Sequence record: OZ035773.1
DNA length: 64,000 nt
DNA from: Justusliebigvirus VEcB
Direction: 5' to 3' (one strand)
Positions 4,758 through 34,749 of this stretch are shown one piece after another. Positions within the stretch are counted from its first letter, which is position 1. Each line of letters begins with the position of its first letter. Under the pieces are notes generated by a model. That model was not told the DNA's origin and ran no database searches. It saw nothing but the letters and a program-made list of their open reading frames with translations. Position numbers and translations under genes: made by a program.

Positions 4758-5445
4758 TTAATCGTTCCTCCGCTTGCTTAAAAATATTTACATCGGCTTC
4801 ACAGCCTAAGTATTCTCTACCTGTTAAAAGTGCCGCAACTTGTGTTGTTGCACTTCCAGAGAAGAAGTCTAAGACTACATCTCCTTCGTTGGTGTGTATA
4901 TTAATAAGGTCACAAAACAAAGTCAAGTGTTTTTGTGTTGGATGAAAACGATCTGCTCCTTGATAGATAGGATACTCAAACACACCCTTATGGTAGGAAG
5001 CATTGAAGGTTGGCTTCGAACCTTTAACACAAACAATAGCCATCTCTTTAGCGTTACTAAGATAGTTAACACCACTGTTGATGGGTACAGGGTTTGTTTT
5101 AATCCATTCAATAGTACGGAACATACGAAAACCAAGCGGTTCAAGGATTTCACGTAGCTCCTGGATCTTCCAGATATCATACCAAACTATGCAAGTACCA
5201 CCTTTTCTAAGTACCCTATAGGCTTCTTTGAATACTTCTTTAAAGTAAGGAATATCTACAACATCCCAATCACCAAAGTTGTAAGATACACGGAATCTAT
5301 CTGTATCTTTTCCAGTAGGCTCTCCAGATTGAAAATTTGTGTCACGAGAAATAGCATATGGTGGGTCAGTAAGAATCAAATCTACACTGTTGCTTTCGAG
5401 GGTTTGCAGGTAGTTTAATGCGGTGTTGTTTACAAATTCGCTCAT
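4714..5445 (-). CDS. DNA methyltransferase (beta-class N6-adenine/N4-cytosine)
   Basis: DPPY catalytic motif (LILTDPPYAI) N-terminal, SAM-binding FxGSxTT-like motif (VVLDFFSGSATT) C-terminal. Confidence 0.75.
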   Translation of the reverse strand: MSEFVNNTALNYLQTLESNSVDLILTDPPYAISRDTNFQSGEPTGKDTDRFRVSYNFGDWDVVDIPYFKEVFKEAYRVLRKGGTCIVWYDIWKIQELREILEPLGFRMFRTIEWIKTNPVPINSGVNYLSNAKEMAIVCVKGSKPTFNASYHKGVFEYPIYQGADRFHPTQKHLTLFCDLINIHTNEGDVVLDFFSGSATTQVAALLTGREYLGCEADVNIFKQAEERLNEYTEQQNHPESTD

Positions 5446-7526: not shown

Positions 7527-8110
7527 TCTTTATGTTGTTCTACATGCTCAAGCATTTCATTATATAGTGCTTTAAGATGTGGAACAACTCTTTCATCTTC
7601 AGTTTCAAAGAATTTTGTAAGCTGTTCTGCCTTAGCCTTCAACCAGCAAAGATGTGCTTCAATTTCAGTATTAAAACGTCCCAGCGTTATAACACGTCCA
7701 TCGCGTTGAATATGGGCTTTATACTTTTTACGATCTTTTTCGTAACTACAACCTACCATAGTTCCATGAGATCTTTTACTTACTCTATAAGCTAAGAACT
7801 TGTTAAGATCTCCTGTTACTAAAAGACAGGTATCGGGAGAGTAAACTCTCCCTCCTATAATATCTTTATCAAGTTCTAAGTTTTCCCAGTTATCCCACGT
7901 TTGCAACCAAGAATAGAAATTGGAGAACAACTTCCATTCTTCACAAACCGTCACCCCATTATAACACGGATCACGTTCTTGTTGACAAGGGGAGTAACAC
8001 CTCCCCAACATAGCCATCCATTTCATATAATGCGGCGTTAGTTTCTTACTACCAGGTAGTGTACTCTCGCCTTCCAAATCATTAATACCTTCACCATATA
8101 CGGTAAGCAT
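7514..8110 (-). CDS. HNH-family homing endonuclease with AP2-like DNA-binding domain
   Basis: WMAMLGRCYSP...YNGVTVCEEW...LDKDI...YSPDTC pattern typical of phage HNH endonucleases; C-terminal RDGRVITLGRFNTEIEAH AP2-like segment. Confidence 0.55.
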   Translation of the reverse strand: MLTVYGEGINDLEGESTLPGSKKLTPHYMKWMAMLGRCYSPCQQERDPCYNGVTVCEEWKLFSNFYSWLQTWDNWENLELDKDIIGGRVYSPDTCLLVTGDLNKFLAYRVSKRSHGTMVGCSYEKDRKKYKAHIQRDGRVITLGRFNTEIEAHLCWLKAKAEQLTKFFETEDERVVPHLKALYNEMLEHVEQHKEWTR

Positions 8111-8137
8111 AAAAACTCCTTTAAAATCAAAGAGATG

Positions 8138-11100
8138 TCAGTGACAAGTTGACCATGAACTACCAACATCGTAACCAGCAGTGAGAGGTACATTAAGATT
8201 GTAATACTCACCAGCTTTATTAACAGCGATAGATGCTAATTCTCCGGCACGACTGTAGGCTGTAAACCAACCACCTTTCGGAGATTCATGTACGTTAGCC
8301 CAAATCTTGCCAGTACGTTTCTCTTCCTCTTCTTTCCAGGCATTAACTTTATCCAAACATTCTTTATCAATTTTCTTTTGTTCTTCTGGATCATCAACTT
8401 GAGTCCAACCTAAAGATTCTTTAGAGAACCATTTAAAATGCACCAGATCACGAGTTACTTCAAGCTGTGCTTCATCGTGATATGCAATCATTTGTTGAAC
8501 GAATGACTTATTTTTCCAGTCATCAACAAAAAAGTCAACAGCTAATCCTTCTTCTTCGATAAGATCGTCGTAGATAACCATTGCTCTTTTTGCACAAATA
8601 ACACCACCACTCTGGAACAGAGAGTTAAGTATTGCGTGTGCAGATCGTGTAGGTACTTTTCTACCATCAATACCGAGAATGTATTTCTTACCTGTTTTAA
8701 CCCAAAAATCATGCAGACGTTCTTTAAGAAGCGCAAGAGGTTTTGCAGCTTCCCAGAAAGCATCGTATACAAGCTGTCCTGTATACATATCACTACCTAT
8801 AGTTTTTGCTACTTTTGCAGCTTGAGCACCATAAGTAATACCATACTTAACAGATTTAGCAGGGCTTCGTTCAAACTTACGACCAATAGTGTCAGAAATA
8901 CGTCGAGCCATCATTGTATGAACATCATTAGGTTTTTCCAATAATAGAGCATTACAATATTCGTGTGGTTCCTGCTCGTACCGCCAACAGTTTCCTGTGA
9001 TGGTAATGCAGTCTTTCTGACGCATGACCCACGTACCAAGTTCTGTTTGTGGACACCAAACATCCTCTACACCCCACTCTTCAATAGTCAAACTTTGAAC
9101 AGGAATGTGAGAGCGGTTAGCCAATGTTGCCACTTTTACTTTCTGCTCTTTTGTATTGAAAGCTACAGAGATATTGCCTCCATGCACCAGGTACGAGGCA
9201 GTTAAAGCTGCTTCAAAAAGTTCACCTGGGTTCTGCGCCCAACGCCAAACAGGTTTTTGTTTATGTTCGTGCCAGTAACCATCTGCAATCAAGAAACCTT
9301 CCAAGAAAGCTACACGCTCGGCATGAGACATATTAACTACACGCTCTACCCACGGAACATCCCATTTACCTTGTTGAACAGAAGTTAAACTATTTACCTG
9401 ATCTTGTTCCATGTTAAATGGAGCATTACAAATAATATTATCTCCTGTGCAAAGCTCGGCAGTTGTTCTGACTTTAGGCACATAAGTATTCCCTGTACTA
9501 CGAGTATTAACATACCAACGGTGATCTGCTGTTGCACGATAAGTATGGGATTTTCCTTTAATCTCAAACGTCTTACTATTTTTATAGAAGACCTTACCTT
9601 TTACTTTAGTCCATTCTTTAAGTCCTGTTTCTGGGTTATATCCTAAGATTTCATCCCCTTCTTGTAGATCGTGATAACCAACCCAACCTTTACGGGTTAG
9701 TGCTTGTGCATCCATAGGTACACAGTAGTGTGATTCTATTTTTGCCTCAAGAGAATCAAAGTCATAACCAATTTGGAAGTATTTTGGAACTTCTACACCA
9801 AATAAGTTACGCATTTCATATCCGTACAGAGATGTTACACGTGGGATATTTGCTACTAACCTATGTTTCATACGAGACGTAGCTGCATCACACGTTGCAG
9901 CAGGAGTTGGTATACGACCATCAGCCCTTACTGCTGCCAGATAACCTTTATCGTAATCCTCTTCATCTTCTTCCCAATCAGCACCACCCCCTAGAATAGA
10001 GTTCCTACGGTGTTTATATGTAAGATACTGCACAATCTGCGTAGCATAAGGAAACTTTTCACCTAGTGCTTCCAAATTAGGACAAATATCTTTCTCTTGC
10101 CCTTTTGTAAAGGAAGGGTTAGTAAGCACTTTAACACCACGACCTTTAGCTTTAGCAATACGATCTCTTAGTTTCCATTCCAAAGTTTCTGGTGTGCACT
10201 CCAGATGATCACATCTGTCCTGGCAGAAGTTAGATGCTAACGTTTGATCAACATAGTCACGAATAGCTTTCTCCATCTGTGCTTCATCTTTCTTAATCTT
10301 AGTGCCAGATTTAAGAGTGATATCTTTATCTTTATATTCAGATGGACTCCAACCTAAACCAACTAACCAGTTTTTAATATGTGTAGTGTCGTCTAAAGTA
10401 GCAGGTACTGTAGGATCACAAATAGGTTCTTCTGCTGGAATAGGTAGTTTAAACTCTTTACCTAGTGCAAATAACCACCAACCATCTTCTTTTTGTACAA
10501 GTTCACCAGAATGTTTCTCTGCAAACTTTATCATGTTACTTGAAGGTTCACCATTCTTTTTAAACTGGAGTTTAGGTGGAATGAATGATTTCAAATAACC
10601 TTTGGTAGCAGGTTTAGGAGGTAGCACAGGTTCTGCCTCTAAACGACATGCTTCCATTCGAGCATCCAGATCACGAATATTATCTTCTGCTTGTTTCATA
10701 TTGAAAGCAAAGCCACGGTGCTCTTGACGTGTAATAATATCAGCTACACGTTGTTCTAAGTTAAATGGTTCAGACCACTTATTATAATCACCCCACTCTT
10801 CCATCAAATAACGGAACACTGCGGTGTTAGCTTTGTTATCGTAAATACAGTAATACAGCATATCTGCTGCAAATGTTTTAAATCTTTCAGTTTCAGGAAT
10901 GTTTTTTCTAAAATCAATTTTAACATCCCCTCCAGCTTTCTTAGATAACTCTGCCAGACTATGACCACCGAAGCGATCAGGGTTTAGTGTCTTACTTAAG
11001 ATCATAGTATCACAAATTTCAATGTTACTATTACCCCAAGTATTGTACTTAATACTGTAGTTGAGTTTAAAAAATAATTTAATTGCCAGTAAGTCAAAGT

Positions 11101-28945: not shown

Positions 28946-30106
28946 TTAGTAAGAACGACCACCAAACACATACTCTGTGTAGTTTTTACGTTCTTTGTTT
29001 TTAATAACAACTTCAATGTTGTTGCCTTTATCATCGGTGAACACAAAGTGATAACCGTCACCACCCATTGTACGGATGTGTTTTTCATCATACGTCAGCA
29101 AGATACGGTCTACACCCCAGTAGTAGTCACCTTCTTCGTCTTTATCTTCTACGGTAACGACTCCTTCCATTTCAGGAAGATGCTCTTCTCCTGACTTATG
29201 ATCTACAGCTACAACATAACGATTACCGCTAAACAAACCTTGTGCTGTCATACCGTCAATATCTGTATCTGACGAAACATCTCCTGTACGATCTACACCG
29301 TTAACTTTCAGAAGTTTAACTTCTTTTGCAGCATAGCGGTGTTCAGTAATACTGATACCCATTAATGCAAGTGCATCAGAGAATTTGTCATTAGGGTAAC
29401 GGTTAAGTTCTTCTACTAGTGACTGAACAATATCAAAGTTCAAGTCCACGGAAAGATTATAAAGCGTTTCAAAATCTGGTAAAAAGGCTTTGTTCTCCAG
29501 ATTTTTAGCCAGATAGTCATCCATAGTAGCTTTAGGTAGTTTCTTATAGCTAAAGCTGTAGAAAATACGGCTAGGACGATTACGCAAAAATTCTGATACA
29601 TAACCATCATTTTTAGTCAATACAAACAGCTTGTCATAGCCACCAACACCATCCAGCAGGGTAAGCAAACCATCCTGTGCATCTTTTTCAGCATACAGTT
29701 TATCAAATTCATCGATCATAATCATCACAGGTTGTGTGATTTTAGACATAAAATTGATAAAGCCTTCACCATTAAAAGCACTACCGATAGAAATAGTAGG
29801 AATACCCATTTCACGAAGAGCAGAAGATAGCATTTTAGCTTGCAAAGTTTTACCGCTACCCTTCGTACCCTCAAGGAGAACACCTGTGTTTTTACCTTTG
29901 CGGCTAAGGAACGTCTTGATAATACGTTCTGATTTATCATCAGTATCACCGTATGTTACTGAAGGGACTTCCATATCGTTTTTAGGATACAGGAAGAACT
30001 CACCACTTTGGGTAACACCTACACCAAAAGTTCCTGCTGGAATTTCTTCGATATCTGTACCAGACTTCTGACGCAGGAAGATTTGATTGCCGAAGACTGT
30101 AAACAT
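28946..30106 (-). CDS. AAA-family ATPase (paralog A)
   Basis: Walker A GTKGSGKT, Walker B IMIDEFDK, sensor-1 VLTKN, Arg-finger-like RNRPSR; paralog of 45607-46734. Confidence 0.55.
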   Translation of the reverse strand: MFTVFGNQIFLRQKSGTDIEEIPAGTFGVGVTQSGEFFLYPKNDMEVPSVTYGDTDDKSERIIKTFLSRKGKNTGVLLEGTKGSGKTLQAKMLSSALREMGIPTISIGSAFNGEGFINFMSKITQPVMIMIDEFDKLYAEKDAQDGLLTLLDGVGGYDKLFVLTKNDGYVSEFLRNRPSRIFYSFSYKKLPKATMDDYLAKNLENKAFLPDFETLYNLSVDLNFDIVQSLVEELNRYPNDKFSDALALMGISITEHRYAAKEVKLLKVNGVDRTGDVSSDTDIDGMTAQGLFSGNRYVVAVDHKSGEEHLPEMEGVVTVEDKDEEGDYYWGVDRILLTYDEKHIRTMGGDGYHFVFTDDKGNNIEVVIKNKERKNYTEYVFGGRSY

Positions 30107-30126: not shown

Positions 30127-30597
30127 TTAGTCAGATTCCCAAATGTTGTCTTTCTTAACCCACATTCGTTGATTATCTGAGCCTCTATAACGTTTCGTTG
30201 TTGGTTGATTCATATCATACTTACCATCTATCACTATGTCAACCAGTTTTTTAATTTTTTCTGGAATTTCTTCAAAAAGATATCCTGTATATAAGACAAT
30301 ATCTTTTTTGTTTCCAAAACAATCTCTTACCTTCTCAAGAACATACTCTACAGTGTCAATGTTCTCTTTGTCAAGAGGTTCACCACCTAAAACTGTTAAT
30401 CCTTTAATGAAAGGTCGAGATAAATCTTCCAAGATAAGATCTAATGTTTCAGCAGTGAACTCTTGTCCGTAGTTATACGACCAGGCTTTCTGGTTAAAGC
30501 AGCCACGGCAACCGTGGCTACAACCGCTCACCCACAAAGAGCATCTTACACCGTCACCGTTGAGCATGTCAACAGGTTCATATCCGGCGTAATTCAA
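30127..30597 (-). CDS. nrdG: Anaerobic ribonucleotide reductase activating protein
   Basis: Radical-SAM CxxxCxxC cluster (CSHGCRGC) near the N-terminus; small size; directly downstream of nrdD with a 4-nt overlap. Confidence 0.8.
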   Translation of the reverse strand: MNYAGYEPVDMLNGDGVRCSLWVSGCSHGCRGCFNQKAWSYNYGQEFTAETLDLILEDLSRPFIKGLTVLGGEPLDKENIDTVEYVLEKVRDCFGNKKDIVLYTGYLFEEIPEKIKKLVDIVIDGKYDMNQPTTKRYRGSDNQRMWVKKDNIWESD

Positions 30598-31535
30598 AAA
30601 TGTTTCTCCCTTTCTAGTACCTCTTGCATTTTACCTTTATTATAAGGGCGAGAGTTAGGGGCAGAAAGGTATCCTGACACTCTTCTGATCACAGATATGG
30701 ATTCTTCTTCATGATTGCCACAACTTGGACACTCGAAGCCTTTAGCCGTTGCTTTAAATTCACCATGAAAACCACATTTGAAACACTGATCTACAGGTTG
30801 GTTCACGCCAAAATAAGGAATTTTGTTGTAGGCATAATCTACAAGAGTTTCCAGTGCTTGCAAGTTATTTTTAAGGTTTGGTGTTTCTACATAACCTATG
30901 TTCCCACCATTACTAATTTGTGCAAAACCTTCCTCATAATCCCACTTTTGGAACGGGGTAGTGTGCATCCACACAGGTTGATGGAAAGAGTTTGTCAAGT
31001 AGTCACGATCAATAGAACCAGGATAGCGATCATTTAATGCTTTGGCAAATTTATAGCACAAGGATTCTGCTGGTGTTCCATACAAACTAAAAGCTAAACC
31101 AGAACGTTCTTTAAATGTGCCACAGATATCCTTCATATATTGAAGGATGTTTTTACCCATTGCTTTTGGATTGGTGTTACCTGGGTATAAAATCTCCATA
31201 GCTTCTGCTAAACCTACATAACCGATACTAATAGAGGCATAACCACCTTCAAATAGTTTACCAATCTCTTCATTAGCTTCTAATCGAGCTAAAGCCCCTT
31301 CCATAAACAATGTAGGGTTTTGAGATGCTTTGGTATGTCTAATACGGTTAACACGTAGCATATGTGCCTTATACGCCATCTCCATATGTTGTTCCAACAG
31401 TTCAGTAAATAAGATGCCCTTTTCACGGGACTCTGCTGCAATGATAGGTAAGTTTAAAGAAACTACGCCTAAGTTGAAACGACCATCATATTTTTCACCT
31501 TGCTCTGTTGCATAGTATGACAAGAAACTTCTACA
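30594..31535 (-). CDS. nrdD: Anaerobic ribonucleoside-triphosphate reductase, exon 2
   Basis: C-terminal zinc ribbon CxxC...CxxC and glycyl-radical motif RVSGYL; frame open upstream of the listed start; proposed exon start at TGT (Cys) of CRSFL. Confidence 0.8.
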   Translation of the reverse strand, partial: CRSFLSYYATEQGEKYDGRFNLGVVSLNLPIIAAESREKGILFTELLEQHMEMAYKAHMLRVNRIRHTKASQNPTLFMEGALARLEANEEIGKLFEGGYASISIGYVGLAEAMEILYPGNTNPKAMGKNILQYMKDICGTFKERSGLAFSLYGTPAESLCYKFAKALNDRYPGSIDRDYLTNSFHQPVWMHTTPFQKWDYEEGFAQISNGGNIGYVETPNLKNNLQALETLVDYAYNKIPYFGVNQPVDQCFKCGFHGEFKATAKGFECPSCGNHEEESISVIRRVSGYLSAPNSRPYNKGKMQEVLEREKHF

Positions 31536-31814
31536 CATTATGTTCAAAGTGGCTCGCAAGGCCACTCCCGCACCATTACGTGCTGCTGCATGTCACCATG
31601 CAGATCAGACTATATCTTCATGCTTAAAGCATGTCTACCATTTGGGGTGTCATAGGCTTACACCCTACGCTGCTACATTCATCACAGCTAGTCGTTAGGC
31701 ATTTCGTAATAGTACCCCCTTCTTCTGTGTTGGGAGTTCTGTTACGTTTAGCACGGGATTGTCTCGTTGAGAGTTCCCCCGTTTAGGCAGATTTTACATG
31801 AGCAGTTATAGTTT
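31536..31814 (-). ncRNA. Group I self-splicing intron (ORF-less, 279 nt) in nrdD
   Basis: Exon 1 ends ...AUGGGU, intron ends ...AUAAUG (omega G); intron GCUCAUG can pair with exon CAUGGGU to form P1 with a U-G at the splice site; R-like GCCUAACGACUAGCU and S-like AAGAUAUAGUCU elements present (P7 GACUA/UAGUC). Confidence 0.75.
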
Positions 31815-32672
31815 ACCCATGCTTGTGACGCGACCATCTGAAGATCCTGTAACTTCTTTGTTTAAAGGTACAGAGATAAAATCAGGATAAATGCGTTCAG
31901 CACAACACTCCATTGCCAGTTGCTTCAAATCATAGTTTGGATCGCCAGCTTTCATGTTAACACCATCTTCCAAGAAGAAGATAACTTTAGGAAACACAGG
32001 AGTTACCCTATCTTTTCCCAACCCTTGTTTGTGCACCATTAGGTAGTTTTTAGTGATCATTCTACCAAAAGCAGAGGTATCCAAACCTAAACTAATTGTT
32101 ATAAAAGGTGACTGACCATTTACACTCATTAGAGTGTTCACTTGGTAGATTAAAGTTTGCATTGCATCATAGACCTGTTTATCTACCATACGCATAGCAA
32201 TATCATAATCGCCAACATCGGCATATATTTTATTAAAACTTGCTTTAACGTATTGACTAAGCCCAGTATCAACATGTGCACAAGTTTGTCCACCATATTG
32301 GCTAGAAGCTACTGCTTGAATAATTTGAGTTAGGACAGTAGTCGCTACACCGATAGATTTTGGTTTTTCAATATGTGCATTACCAATACGGAAACCGTTC
32401 TCAAGCATATCTTGGTAATTTACCAGGCAACAATTAGTTAAAGGTGAGAGTAAATAATCTAAATCGTGGATGTGACCATACCCACTTTTATGCCATTCTG
32501 CTAAATCTTCCGGTAAAATATGGGTCATTGCCATGTGCTTGCTTAGGATACCTGCTAGTAAGTCTCGGTGAGTATTAACAATCATTGCAGGTTTGTTTGC
32601 ATTTTCACGAGTAAATTCTTCGGATGTTTGTTCGAGGAATCCGATTACATCCTCATATAGTTTTTGGGTCAT
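31815..32672 (-). CDS. nrdD: Anaerobic ribonucleoside-triphosphate reductase, exon 1
   Basis: N-terminal half of the reading frame; GGAGGA RBS upstream; terminates 2 codons past the proposed 5' splice site. Confidence 0.8.
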
Positions 32673-33729: not shown

Positions 33730-34164
33730 TTAGTTTAAAATTTCTTTGGCAATGGTAGAAGCAAGTTTTCCATCATATTGATTAGGATACTCTGCTTTAA
33801 GGTGCTTCATCATATCTGGCATTTTCTTGCCTGTCAAGGCAAATTCTTCAGCAATCGCTCGAAGGTCATCTTCAGATAGCATTTCTGGTAAATATTTTTC
33901 CAGAGTGGTGATATCACGCATAGCTCGCTCACATTTGCTAAGGGAAGCATTAACTTTCTTAAGTGAGTCTAGCTCCTCTTTAGCGTGTGCAATACCAATC
34001 TTAACAATGTTAATCATAATATCATCTTCTGATTTATTTAGATTTGCCTTTTGAGTACGAGCAAGGTCAAACTCACCAATAATATTAGTTAACAAAGCAA
34101 AAGCACCCTTATCGGTTGTACGTGCTAAGATACGATCTGCTTTCATTTGTGTCACAATAGACAT
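33730..34164 (-). CDS. GatB/YqeY-domain protein
   Basis: KYLPEMLSEDDLRAIAEEF ... MPDMMKHLKAEYPNQYDGKLASTIAKEIL matches the YqeY/GatB C-terminal domain pattern. Confidence 0.6.
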   Translation of the reverse strand: MSIVTQMKADRILARTTDKGAFALLTNIIGEFDLARTQKANLNKSEDDIMINIVKIGIAHAKEELDSLKKVNASLSKCERAMRDITTLEKYLPEMLSEDDLRAIAEEFALTGKKMPDMMKHLKAEYPNQYDGKLASTIAKEILN

Positions 34165-34176
34165 TCTATTCTCCTC

Positions 34177-34749
34177 TTATTTGCTAATGCTTTGAATGTT
34201 ATTTACAACACGGTTTATTGCCAGTGAAGCCCTAGGCTCCGCAATACCTGTTGCATAGATATAAGGATGACCTTTTGGAGACTCCCTCATACCGAATGAA
34301 CCTAATTCTAAACCATATTCATCCTCTACGTCAACCCCAATATTAGTGGGTACTAAATATGTTTTAACTCCATAGTAAGTAGAGAAGAAACAGCGCATAG
34401 AGTTAGCATACTCTTCAATTGTAGCATCAGGATAGAACTCAATCAACTCCAATTTCAAGAAAATATTAAAATGGGTATCATCTAAATTTTCTTCTGTGCG
34501 GTAACATGGTGTTAGTGCCATATACGGATTACCTACTGCAAATTCAAAACCATCCTTCTCCATTTGCAGGAAAGATTGTTCTGCACTAGCTACATAGTAT
34601 TTACCGTTAGGATGCCCTAATGGGCGATCCTCTTTATTTTCTGGTAGTGTATACGCCAGTATATCAGCATCCACGAGATATGGAACTTCTAACATTTGTG
34701 CAAATCGACCATAGTAATCAATAGCTTGAGCTATTACTGCAACATTCAT
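34177..34749 (-). CDS. Hypothetical protein
   Basis: Intact ORF. Confidence 0.45.
   Translation of the reverse strand: MNVAVIAQAIDYYGRFAQMLEVPYLVDADILAYTLPENKEDRPLGHPNGKYYVASAEQSFLQMEKDGFEFAVGNPYMALTPCYRTEENLDDTHFNIFLKLELIEFYPDATIEEYANSMRCFFSTYYGVKTYLVPTNIGVDVEDEYGLELGSFGMRESPKGHPYIYATGIAEPRASLAINRVVNNIQSISK

Follow-up and report, generated by a model that had tools for sequence, protein, structure and literature searches.

The anaerobic ribonucleotide reductase gene nrdD of a phi92-like myovirus is interrupted, between the codons for the finger-loop glycine and the catalytic cysteine, by a 279-nt segment that its sequence marks as very probably a group I intron. With comparably high confidence, we propose that two-step, guanosine-initiated self-splicing restores the Met-Gly-Cys-Arg finger loop of the enzyme and that the intron has lost its endonuclease.

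The interrupted gene and its splice junction

The nrdD gene lies on the minus strand of the window, by which we mean the whole 64,000-nucleotide stretch of DNA that was analysed, and direct reading of the sequence places the 279-nt gap at 31814..31536. Exon 1 (31815..32672, minus strand; 286 codons, aligning with residues 5–289 of T4 NrdD) ends in Ser-Met-Gly, encoded by ...AGC AUG GGU, with its final U at 31815. The gap ends ...AUAAUG, with the terminal G at 31536, and exon 2 (30594..31535, minus strand; 313 codons plus stop) starts at 31535 with UGU AGA AGU UUC UUG (CRSFL). In the list of open reading frames, a 288-aa frame (31806..32672) terminates at a UAA three codons inside the gap and a second lies in the exon-2 frame; joining 31815 to 31535 produces an uninterrupted frame of 599 codons. 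The premature stop (GGU/AAA CUA UAA, the slash marking the splice site; 31806..31808, minus strand) also occurs in the JSE, T4, SP21535 and F99 introns. An earlier note, made from these letters without database searches, had claimed the same exon ends, gap length and exon-2 start and an NrdD of about 599 aa after splicing, and each is found at the coordinates it gave. Its description of the gap as ORF-less stands in that there is no homing-endonuclease gene but fails if taken literally, as the gap contains two short plus-strand ORFs and an extension of the exon-2 frame that starts at a GTG (31565). In the phi92 annotation, a gene for a YqeY-like protein and a 190-aa fragment of a seryl-tRNA-synthetase-like gene occupy window positions 33730–34749, just upstream of nrdD.

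The predicted spliced protein aligns end to end with the crystallised T4 NrdD (PDB 1H78; residues 7–598, E = 1.4e-164) and without a gap at the junction, where VTSMG/CRSFL stands opposite T4 VSPMGCRSFL, which answers the earlier note's proposal that the protein be compared with NrdD homologues. Counted along the 1H78 alignment row, the break falls between Gly289 and Cys290 of the T4 enzyme, and Cys290 is the residue that we take to be the radical-initiating finger-loop cysteine. In ribonucleotide reductases, catalysis starts from a critical conserved cysteine in the finger loop, and a methionine of this loop interacts with Cys79 (PMC4493059).

Intron-less alleles exist within the same genus. 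In the Justusliebigvirus genomes W22, EC_OE_11 and alia MN850632, the exons are 98–99% identical to those of the window and continuous over the junction, which W22 reads as AGCATGGGT followed directly by TGCCGTAGT; the W22-type uninterrupted site is ATGGGTTGCCGTAGT. The earlier note had named homologues carrying the two ORFs as separate genes, or as a pseudogene, as grounds for abandoning its reading. Instead, these alleles run uninterrupted over exactly the same junction. Among intron-bearing relatives, PD114, UAB_1 and KKP_3264 match the window at 100% identity in this region and carry nrdD as two annotated genes, and phi92 matches it at 99.8%. The phi92 nrdD intron (FR775895.2) is 99.6% identical to that of the window and has the same position and junction; the phi92 spliced protein (CCF23320.1, UniProt I7IDU2) is identical to that of the window over 599 residues, so that the two systems, which belong to sister isolates, have essentially no difference. 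Because the W22 and alia alleles lack the intron and the spliced product is identical to CCF23320.1, the splice boundaries are fixed. The phi92 record carries a joined CDS, Phi92_gp192A, with the note ‘spliced variant’, and the identity of its 599-aa sequence means that the phi92 annotators had already recognised the intron and its exact junction.

Several database entries call for comment on their own account. Four records labelled ‘Campylobacter phage’ with host C. jejuni (MG065639, MG065645, MG065656 and MG065689) are 99.3–99.6% identical to E. coli phi92-like phages over window positions 31400–31950, and others so labelled (MG065662 etc.) match Vequintavirus; these look like mislabelled or contaminant coliphages. 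The phi92 record also lists a ‘hypothetical tRNA’ within gp190, an AAA-ATPase-like gene, in antisense orientation (window ~29378–29465, equal to 4850–4937 of locus L001), and ARAGORN reports no tRNA anywhere in the 64-kb window.

Ribozyme fold and proposed splicing

A minus-strand search with the Rfam Intron_gpI covariance model (RF00028), a check that the earlier note had suggested, yields a score of 72.5 bits, above the gathering threshold of 50 (E = 1.8e-16), and matches the full model, 1–253, at 31860..31586. The model begins within exon 1, in P1, and ends at P9, leaving the last 50 intron nucleotides (P9.1, P9.2 and the terminal G) outside; no other Rfam match appears in the 64-kb window even at E ≤ 0.1. 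Each computable property of RF00028 membership is present, namely the score, P1, the terminal G and a P3–P9 core whose P3/P7 pseudoknot is included and shows covariation.

The individual elements, all on the minus strand, can be placed precisely. The last seven exon nucleotides, CAUGGGU (31815..31821), encode the Met-Gly of the finger loop and pair with the internal guide sequence GCUCAUG (31797..31803; intron nt 12–18) in the 7-bp P1 that the earlier note had drawn, with a U·G wobble at the cleavage site (U31815) and one internal G·U; P1 is 92.9% paired across relatives. P1 of the window copy leads through UAAAA into P3; the sunY intron is not known to have a P2 between P1 and P3. The P3 5′ strand UCUGCC (31786..31791) pairs with GGUAGA (31634..31639), is 100% paired across relatives and has four of six pairs changed on both sides. 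The P4–P5–P6 domain (31699..31782; nt 33–116), evident in the Rfam match, covariation and folding, includes a P6a/P6b extension (31705..31746; nt 69–110) with P6b formed by ACUCCC/GGGGGU. The R-like and S-like core elements noticed earlier, GCCUAACGACUAGCU and UGAAGAUAUAGUCUGA, are both present, and their segments GACUA (31689..31693) and UAGUC (31608..31612) form P7 in the Rfam match and by covariation. Between P7 and P3′ stand P7.1 (nt 127–146) and P7.2 (nt 150–170), together 31645..31688, with four of five and five of six pairs compensated; these extra helices, typical of subgroup IA, are recovered by both covariation and energy-only folding. P8 (AUGCU/AGCAU, 31620..31632) is 100% paired with five of five pairs compensated, and P9 (31586..31603), capped by a GUGA tetraloop, is found in the Rfam match, covariation and folding. 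P9.1 (nt 232–245) and P9.2 (nt 249–267), at 31548..31583, fall 3′ of the part that the Rfam model covers and are found by covariation and folding. The terminal guanosine, or omega-G, at the 3′ splice site (31536) is kept in all aligned relatives with an assigned 3′ junction, that of the Aeromonas terminase intron being unassigned.

Covariation was counted on a core alignment of eight sequences: the window intron and seven relatives, 64–89% identical, from phage 24-2-1, Vequintavirus SYGMH1, JSE, Vibrio F99 (second intron), T4, Tequatrovirus SP21535 and the Aeromonas terminase gene. ORFs and the interior of P6 were left out of this alignment; with ORFs included, MAFFT misaligned T4 because its ORF is placed elsewhere in the intron. 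A structure of 13 helices and 68 pairs was written from the window sequence, and controls consisted of sliding the 3′ partners by 1–3 columns and of 500 shuffles. Paired cells amount to 92.4%, compared with 33–46% in the slid controls, and changes on both sides occur at 37 of 68 pairs, compared with 7–12. None of the 500 shuffles equalled any observed measure. Taking the structure from one of the aligned sequences favours the count of paired cells, and the counts of compensated pairs are free of that bias. P3, P7.1, P7.2, P8 and P9.2 are each supported mostly through compensatory changes, P7 shows one such change (GACCA/UGGUC in phage 24-2-1), and every helix of the window copy is fully paired. 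The energy-only (MFE) fold of the 279 nt (−85.2 kcal/mol, z = −2.97) recovers P3, P4, P5, P6, P6a, P6b, P7.1, P7.2, P8, P9, P9.1 and P9.2, the P7 pseudoknot being the exception.

We base the proposed mechanism on this anatomy and on established group I chemistry; catalysis, P10 pairing and homing are the parts that we infer. In the pre-mRNA, CAUGGGU would pair with GCUCAUG to form P1, and a free guanosine held in P7 would attack 3′ of the wobble-paired U at 31815. The terminal G at 31536 would next occupy the guanosine site, with exon 2 probably positioned through pairing of UGUAG with CUAUA (P10), and ligation of the exons would restore ...Met-Gly-Cys-Arg... in a 599-aa NrdD. On unspliced RNA, ribosomes would be expected to halt at the UAA three codons into the intron.

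The proposed P10 is tentative. Its guide would be CUAUA (31807..31811, minus strand; intron nt 4–8), facing exon-2 UGUAG (31531–31535), and this pairing is 77.5% paired across relatives. Over the 200 nt on either side of the junction, only exon-2 positions +3, +4 and +6 distinguish the window from W22, TGC CGT having become TGT AGA through two synonymous codon changes. Intron-bearing alleles of four lineages (the window, 24-2-1, SYGMH1 and JSE) all read TGTAGAAGT, whereas the arginine codon is CGN in the intron-less W22, alia, phAPEC8, SPLA5a, RB49, T4 and SP21535, and AGG only in rV5. Exon 2 starts with UGYAG (Arg AGA/AGG) in 45 of 47 metagenomic introns among the matches listed and with CGN in the other two. 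Pooled, AGA/AGG occurs in 49 of 52 intron-bearing and one of eight intron-less sequences (Fisher p = 2e-6), a value that is indicative only given the phylogenetic non-independence of the sequences. UGUAG is complementary to CUAYA, and CUAYA/CUGYA adjoins the guide sequence in most relatives; the window CUAUA is displaced 3 nt 5′ of that guide-adjacent position, and F99 combines an exon 2 beginning UGCCG with GGCA adjoining its guide. A shuffle control for P10 is barely apart from the observed value (4.40 vs 4.30), as nearly all sequences share one pair. The UGYAG signature may thus stem from P10 pairing, the exon strand of which would have to move along with the intron, and co-conversion during homing, which is compatible with the P10 reading, would equally give the same exon-2 pattern.

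Two alternatives to self-splicing deserve consideration. First, nrdD could be permanently split, with the intervening RNA unspliced and NrdD made as two assembling polypeptides, as is reported for the mobE-split NrdA of Aeromonas phage Aeh1. The precedent of a functional split ribonucleotide reductase (PMC3653736, PMC7344957), the two separate CDSs in most records, the RBS-like GGAG and GTG start proposed inside the intron and an in-frame AUG at the intron end all speak for this model. We nonetheless consider it highly improbable. Conservation of a whole core with compensatory changes across phage families would not be expected of a mere spacer, and two independent ORF deletions spared the ribozyme core. 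In addition, the break would cut the Met-Gly-Cys motif of the finger loop (loop role: PMC4493059), and the proposed GTG start sits within the P9.2 helix. Second, the intron could be a decayed, splicing-dead relic in a pseudogene, in keeping with the loss of its endonuclease gene and with the dispensability of nrdD in some relatives, such as several Certrevirus members without nrdD/nrdG (PMC7344957). We give this idea very little credence, since both exons are intact and identical to those in many isolates, the 599-aa product is encoded on 75 contigs, all helices are paired in a window copy that scores highly against the model, the intron is 99–100% conserved in 12 listed records, and the core covaries and was left intact by the ORF deletions. 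An intein or a frameshift was set aside on the stops in the exon-1 frame and the match to an RNA model.

Apart from these models, two potential starts lie near the 3′ splice site. The last three intron bases (31536–31538) form an AUG in frame with exon 2 (AUG/UGU AGA), and a GTG at 31565 (31563–31565), inside P9.2, is the annotated exon-2 start in several records. Either could yield a C-terminal fragment from unspliced RNA, which makes it formally possible that the exon-2 part is translated on its own.

Loss of the endonuclease gene

In phiWec187, arall, SD2, VEcB, nepoznato and nieznany, as well as in the Vequintavirus, JSE and F99 copies, P6 contains an ORF of 166–169 codons for a protein with HNH_3 and I-HmuI NUMOD-like domains (PF22083 and PF13392). 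This product aligns over its full length with I-HmuI of Bacillus phages SPO1/SP82 (1U3E, E = 8e-9). I-HmuI-type introns of Bacillus phages reside in the DNA polymerase gene; the I-HmuI intron thus differs from these sister introns in host gene and ribozyme, and the window differs in having no endonuclease at all. All four endonucleases compared end in EMPND*, and because the codons for this ending are also the P6′-J6/7-P7 segment of the ribozyme (GAAAUGCCUAACGACUAG), protein and RNA share them. The AUG of the phiWec187 ORF is preceded, at a distance of about 7 nt, by a Shine-Dalgarno-like GGGGG that belongs to the 3′ strand of P6b, and the ACUCCC/GGGGGU hairpin covers the endonuclease Shine-Dalgarno sequence in the ORF-bearing sisters.

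Alignments with phiWec187, SYGMH1 and AMO3598 show that the window copy keeps P6b and the last ~7–8 codons of this ORF and has lost the 490 nt between them. The deletion junction falls at ~31710/31711 (minus strand), and the remnant, Tyr-Tyr-Glu-Met-Pro-Asn-Asp-stop (31688..31711, minus strand), overlaps P6a′, P6′, J6/7 and P7. In the 290-nt introns of the AMO3598/PD06/ECGD1 type, a different deletion has kept 11 more nucleotides of the ORF end, and these two independent endpoints identify the ORF-less forms as deletion derivatives; in the window copy, it was the 490-nt deletion inside P6 that removed the homing-endonuclease gene. Phage 24-2-1 has a plain P6a hairpin like that of T4, which represents either a never-invaded form or a clean loss.

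Close relatives of the window therefore occur in three allelic states: no intron, an ORF-less intron of 279 or 290 nt, and a 769-nt intron with the endonuclease ORF. The 29 intron-bearing records among them comprise 12 of the window type, 11 with the ORF and six of the AMO3598 type, and ~54 records match the exons at ≥95%, so that roughly half are intron-less (GenBank/RefSeq duplicates are included in both counts). Two Justusliebigvirus alia records differ, OZ035770.1 having a 280-nt intron and MN850632.1 none, and presence or absence is thus polymorphic within a species. Of the hallmarks of a homing intron, this polymorphism is found, and an endonuclease of its own is absent from the window copy, which has lost autonomous mobility. 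By analogy with I-HmuI, intron-less alleles would be the targets of DNA-level homing driven by the HNH enzyme that the sister alleles encode.

Relatives at two nrdD sites and beyond

The core of the window intron shares 69–74% identity with those T4-type nrdD introns that have its guide sequence, and the T4 nrdD (sunY) intron itself is 70% identical by blastn over nt 12–230 and 71% in the core alignment. Both interrupt nrdD, share a homologous core with homologous P7.1/P7.2 and meet an early in-frame stop after the 5′ splice site; they agree letter for letter in the guide GCUCAUG, in J8/7-P7′ (GAAGAUAUAGUCUGA) and in the P9 hairpin. On the strength of P7.1/P7.2 and sequence homology, the window ribozyme can be assigned to the T4 sunY/nrdD (IA2) family. 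There are several differences, however. The T4 intron lies inside a Tyr codon after ...AYE (...AYE/YEVNTL...), whereas that of the window lies ~100 codons downstream, at a Gly/Cys site that is uninterrupted in T4 nrdD. T4 carries the GIY-YIG enzyme I-TevII 3′ of P9, whereas the window has no ORF and its sisters have an HNH enzyme within P6. Finally, the T4 intron measures 1033 nt (boundaries reconstructed from sequence), compared with 279 nt here. Both insertion site and endonuclease show the window intron to be distinct from the T4 element at its own locus.

Homologous introns occupy the Gly/Cys site in JSE (Krischvirus), FV3-like members of Vequintavirus, Avunavirus 24-2-1 and the Vibrio phages F99 and 184E37.1. 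Those of JSE, the FV3-like phages (for example, SYGMH1) and F99 use the same Met-Gly/Cys-Arg site as the window, with cores 73–89% identical, and retain the 166–169-aa HNH endonuclease gene that the window copy has deleted, as an ORF in P6 that ends ...EMPND* within P7 in an otherwise matching architecture. Exon 2 of JSE and the FV3-like phages begins like that of the window, whereas that of F99 differs.

Some features of these phages stand apart from the comparison. The JSE intron with its HNH endonuclease is complete (locus L005, 1501–2260), and the close relative RB49 is intron-less there; the JSE intron noted in a 2010 review of T4-related genomes is one in gene 43. The annotated start of the JSE endonuclease (L005, 1597) is probably 21 nt too far upstream, the aligned ATG being at 1618. 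The nrdD gene of Vibrio phage F99 has two group I introns (locus L006, ~200–1360 and ~1876–2680), the second at Gly/Cys. The first follows ...QFG, has the guide GCCGAAU and a 309-aa NUMOD4/NUMOD1 ORF annotated as HNH endonuclease, and its first 11 nt (AAACUAUAAAC) resemble the 5′ end of the window intron. The exon downstream of the second F99 intron is annotated as two abutting CDSs (L006, 2629–3288 and 3289–3669).

The breadth of the family was gauged by a pattern scan of IMG/VR (ATGGGT, 10–14 nt, then GCTCATNTAAAA), which covers introns with this exact guide. At least 120 loci match, at least 75 of them with one or both family core motifs downstream. Among the matches listed, at least 47 unique introns could be assigned, all in NrdD of at least three subfamilies, with junctions ...CMG/CRSFLTP, ...STMG/CRTYNG and ...ISPMG/CRAFLSPW; 13 of these 47 introns are 192–355 nt long and 34 are 520–1135 nt. 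The corresponding scan for the T4 site (ATGAGT plus guide) gives 62 matches, only one with both core motifs. We rejected the unfiltered T4-site counts, which are near a rough chance estimate for 17 specified bases with a variable gap. For this guide, Gly/Cys is thus the common site of this ribozyme family in IMG/VR.

The family also extends outside nrdD. In Aeromonas phage 4L372D (locus L007, 2418–2798), an intron without an ORF interrupts the gene for the large terminase subunit. The core of this intron shares 64–72% identity with the nrdD introns, and this homology places the same ribozyme family in an unrelated gene. In IMGVR_UViG_3300036959_000302 (locus L024, ~7677–8300), the same 5′ splice-site hexamer, guide and family P7′ motif occur after ...GGRKSVVMNKLVMG in a gene other than nrdD, which we guess to be an RNA-polymerase beta′-like gene of a large phage; this guide/target pair is thus used beyond nrdD.

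How the two nrdD sites came to host the same ribozyme is a matter on which we can offer only a speculative proposal. Both sites end in AUGRGU and both intron groups share the guide GCUCAU, and on the sense strand of T4 nrdD, ATGRGT occurs at just two places, the T4 intron site and the Gly/Cys site, with ~0.9 occurrences expected by chance in 1.8 kb. A shared hexamer and guide are the pattern expected from guide-sequence-directed (reverse-splicing) transposition between sites. Chance could also account for it, as could ectopic insertion at the DNA level followed by selection for the copies competent to splice. In a 2014 review, rDNA introns are the best circumstantial evidence for spread mediated by reverse splicing (PMC3984707). 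That Gly/Cys is the principal site of the sunY-type ribozyme and perhaps the one where it started out, with the two nrdD sites linked by such transposition, seems to us conceivable but rather unlikely. Grouping of the introns by insertion site was rejected, as T4 is 72% identical to SP21535 and 74% to F99 and features are mosaic; since identity between cores does not follow insertion site, it gives no indication of which way transfer went. If the transposition proposal were true, the UGYAG with which exon 2 of intron-bearing alleles almost always begins would be the sign of a P10 requirement travelling with the intron.

Our literature search found no description of the Gly/Cys intron site, its breadth or its relation to sunY. 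In practical terms, most phi92-like, rV5-like and related records break nrdD into two genes or call the products ‘hypothetical proteins’, and such records should have a joined CDS and an intron feature. The element is of a well-known kind and leaves the understanding of group I introns unchanged. It sits at the radical-initiating cysteine of an essential-class enzyme and provides a natural series in which one mobile intron is seen in three states: absent, present with its endonuclease, and present with the endonuclease deleted in two independent ways. More broadly, for this exact guide, the ribozyme known from T4 sunY has many more relatives at this second nrdD site than at T4's own.
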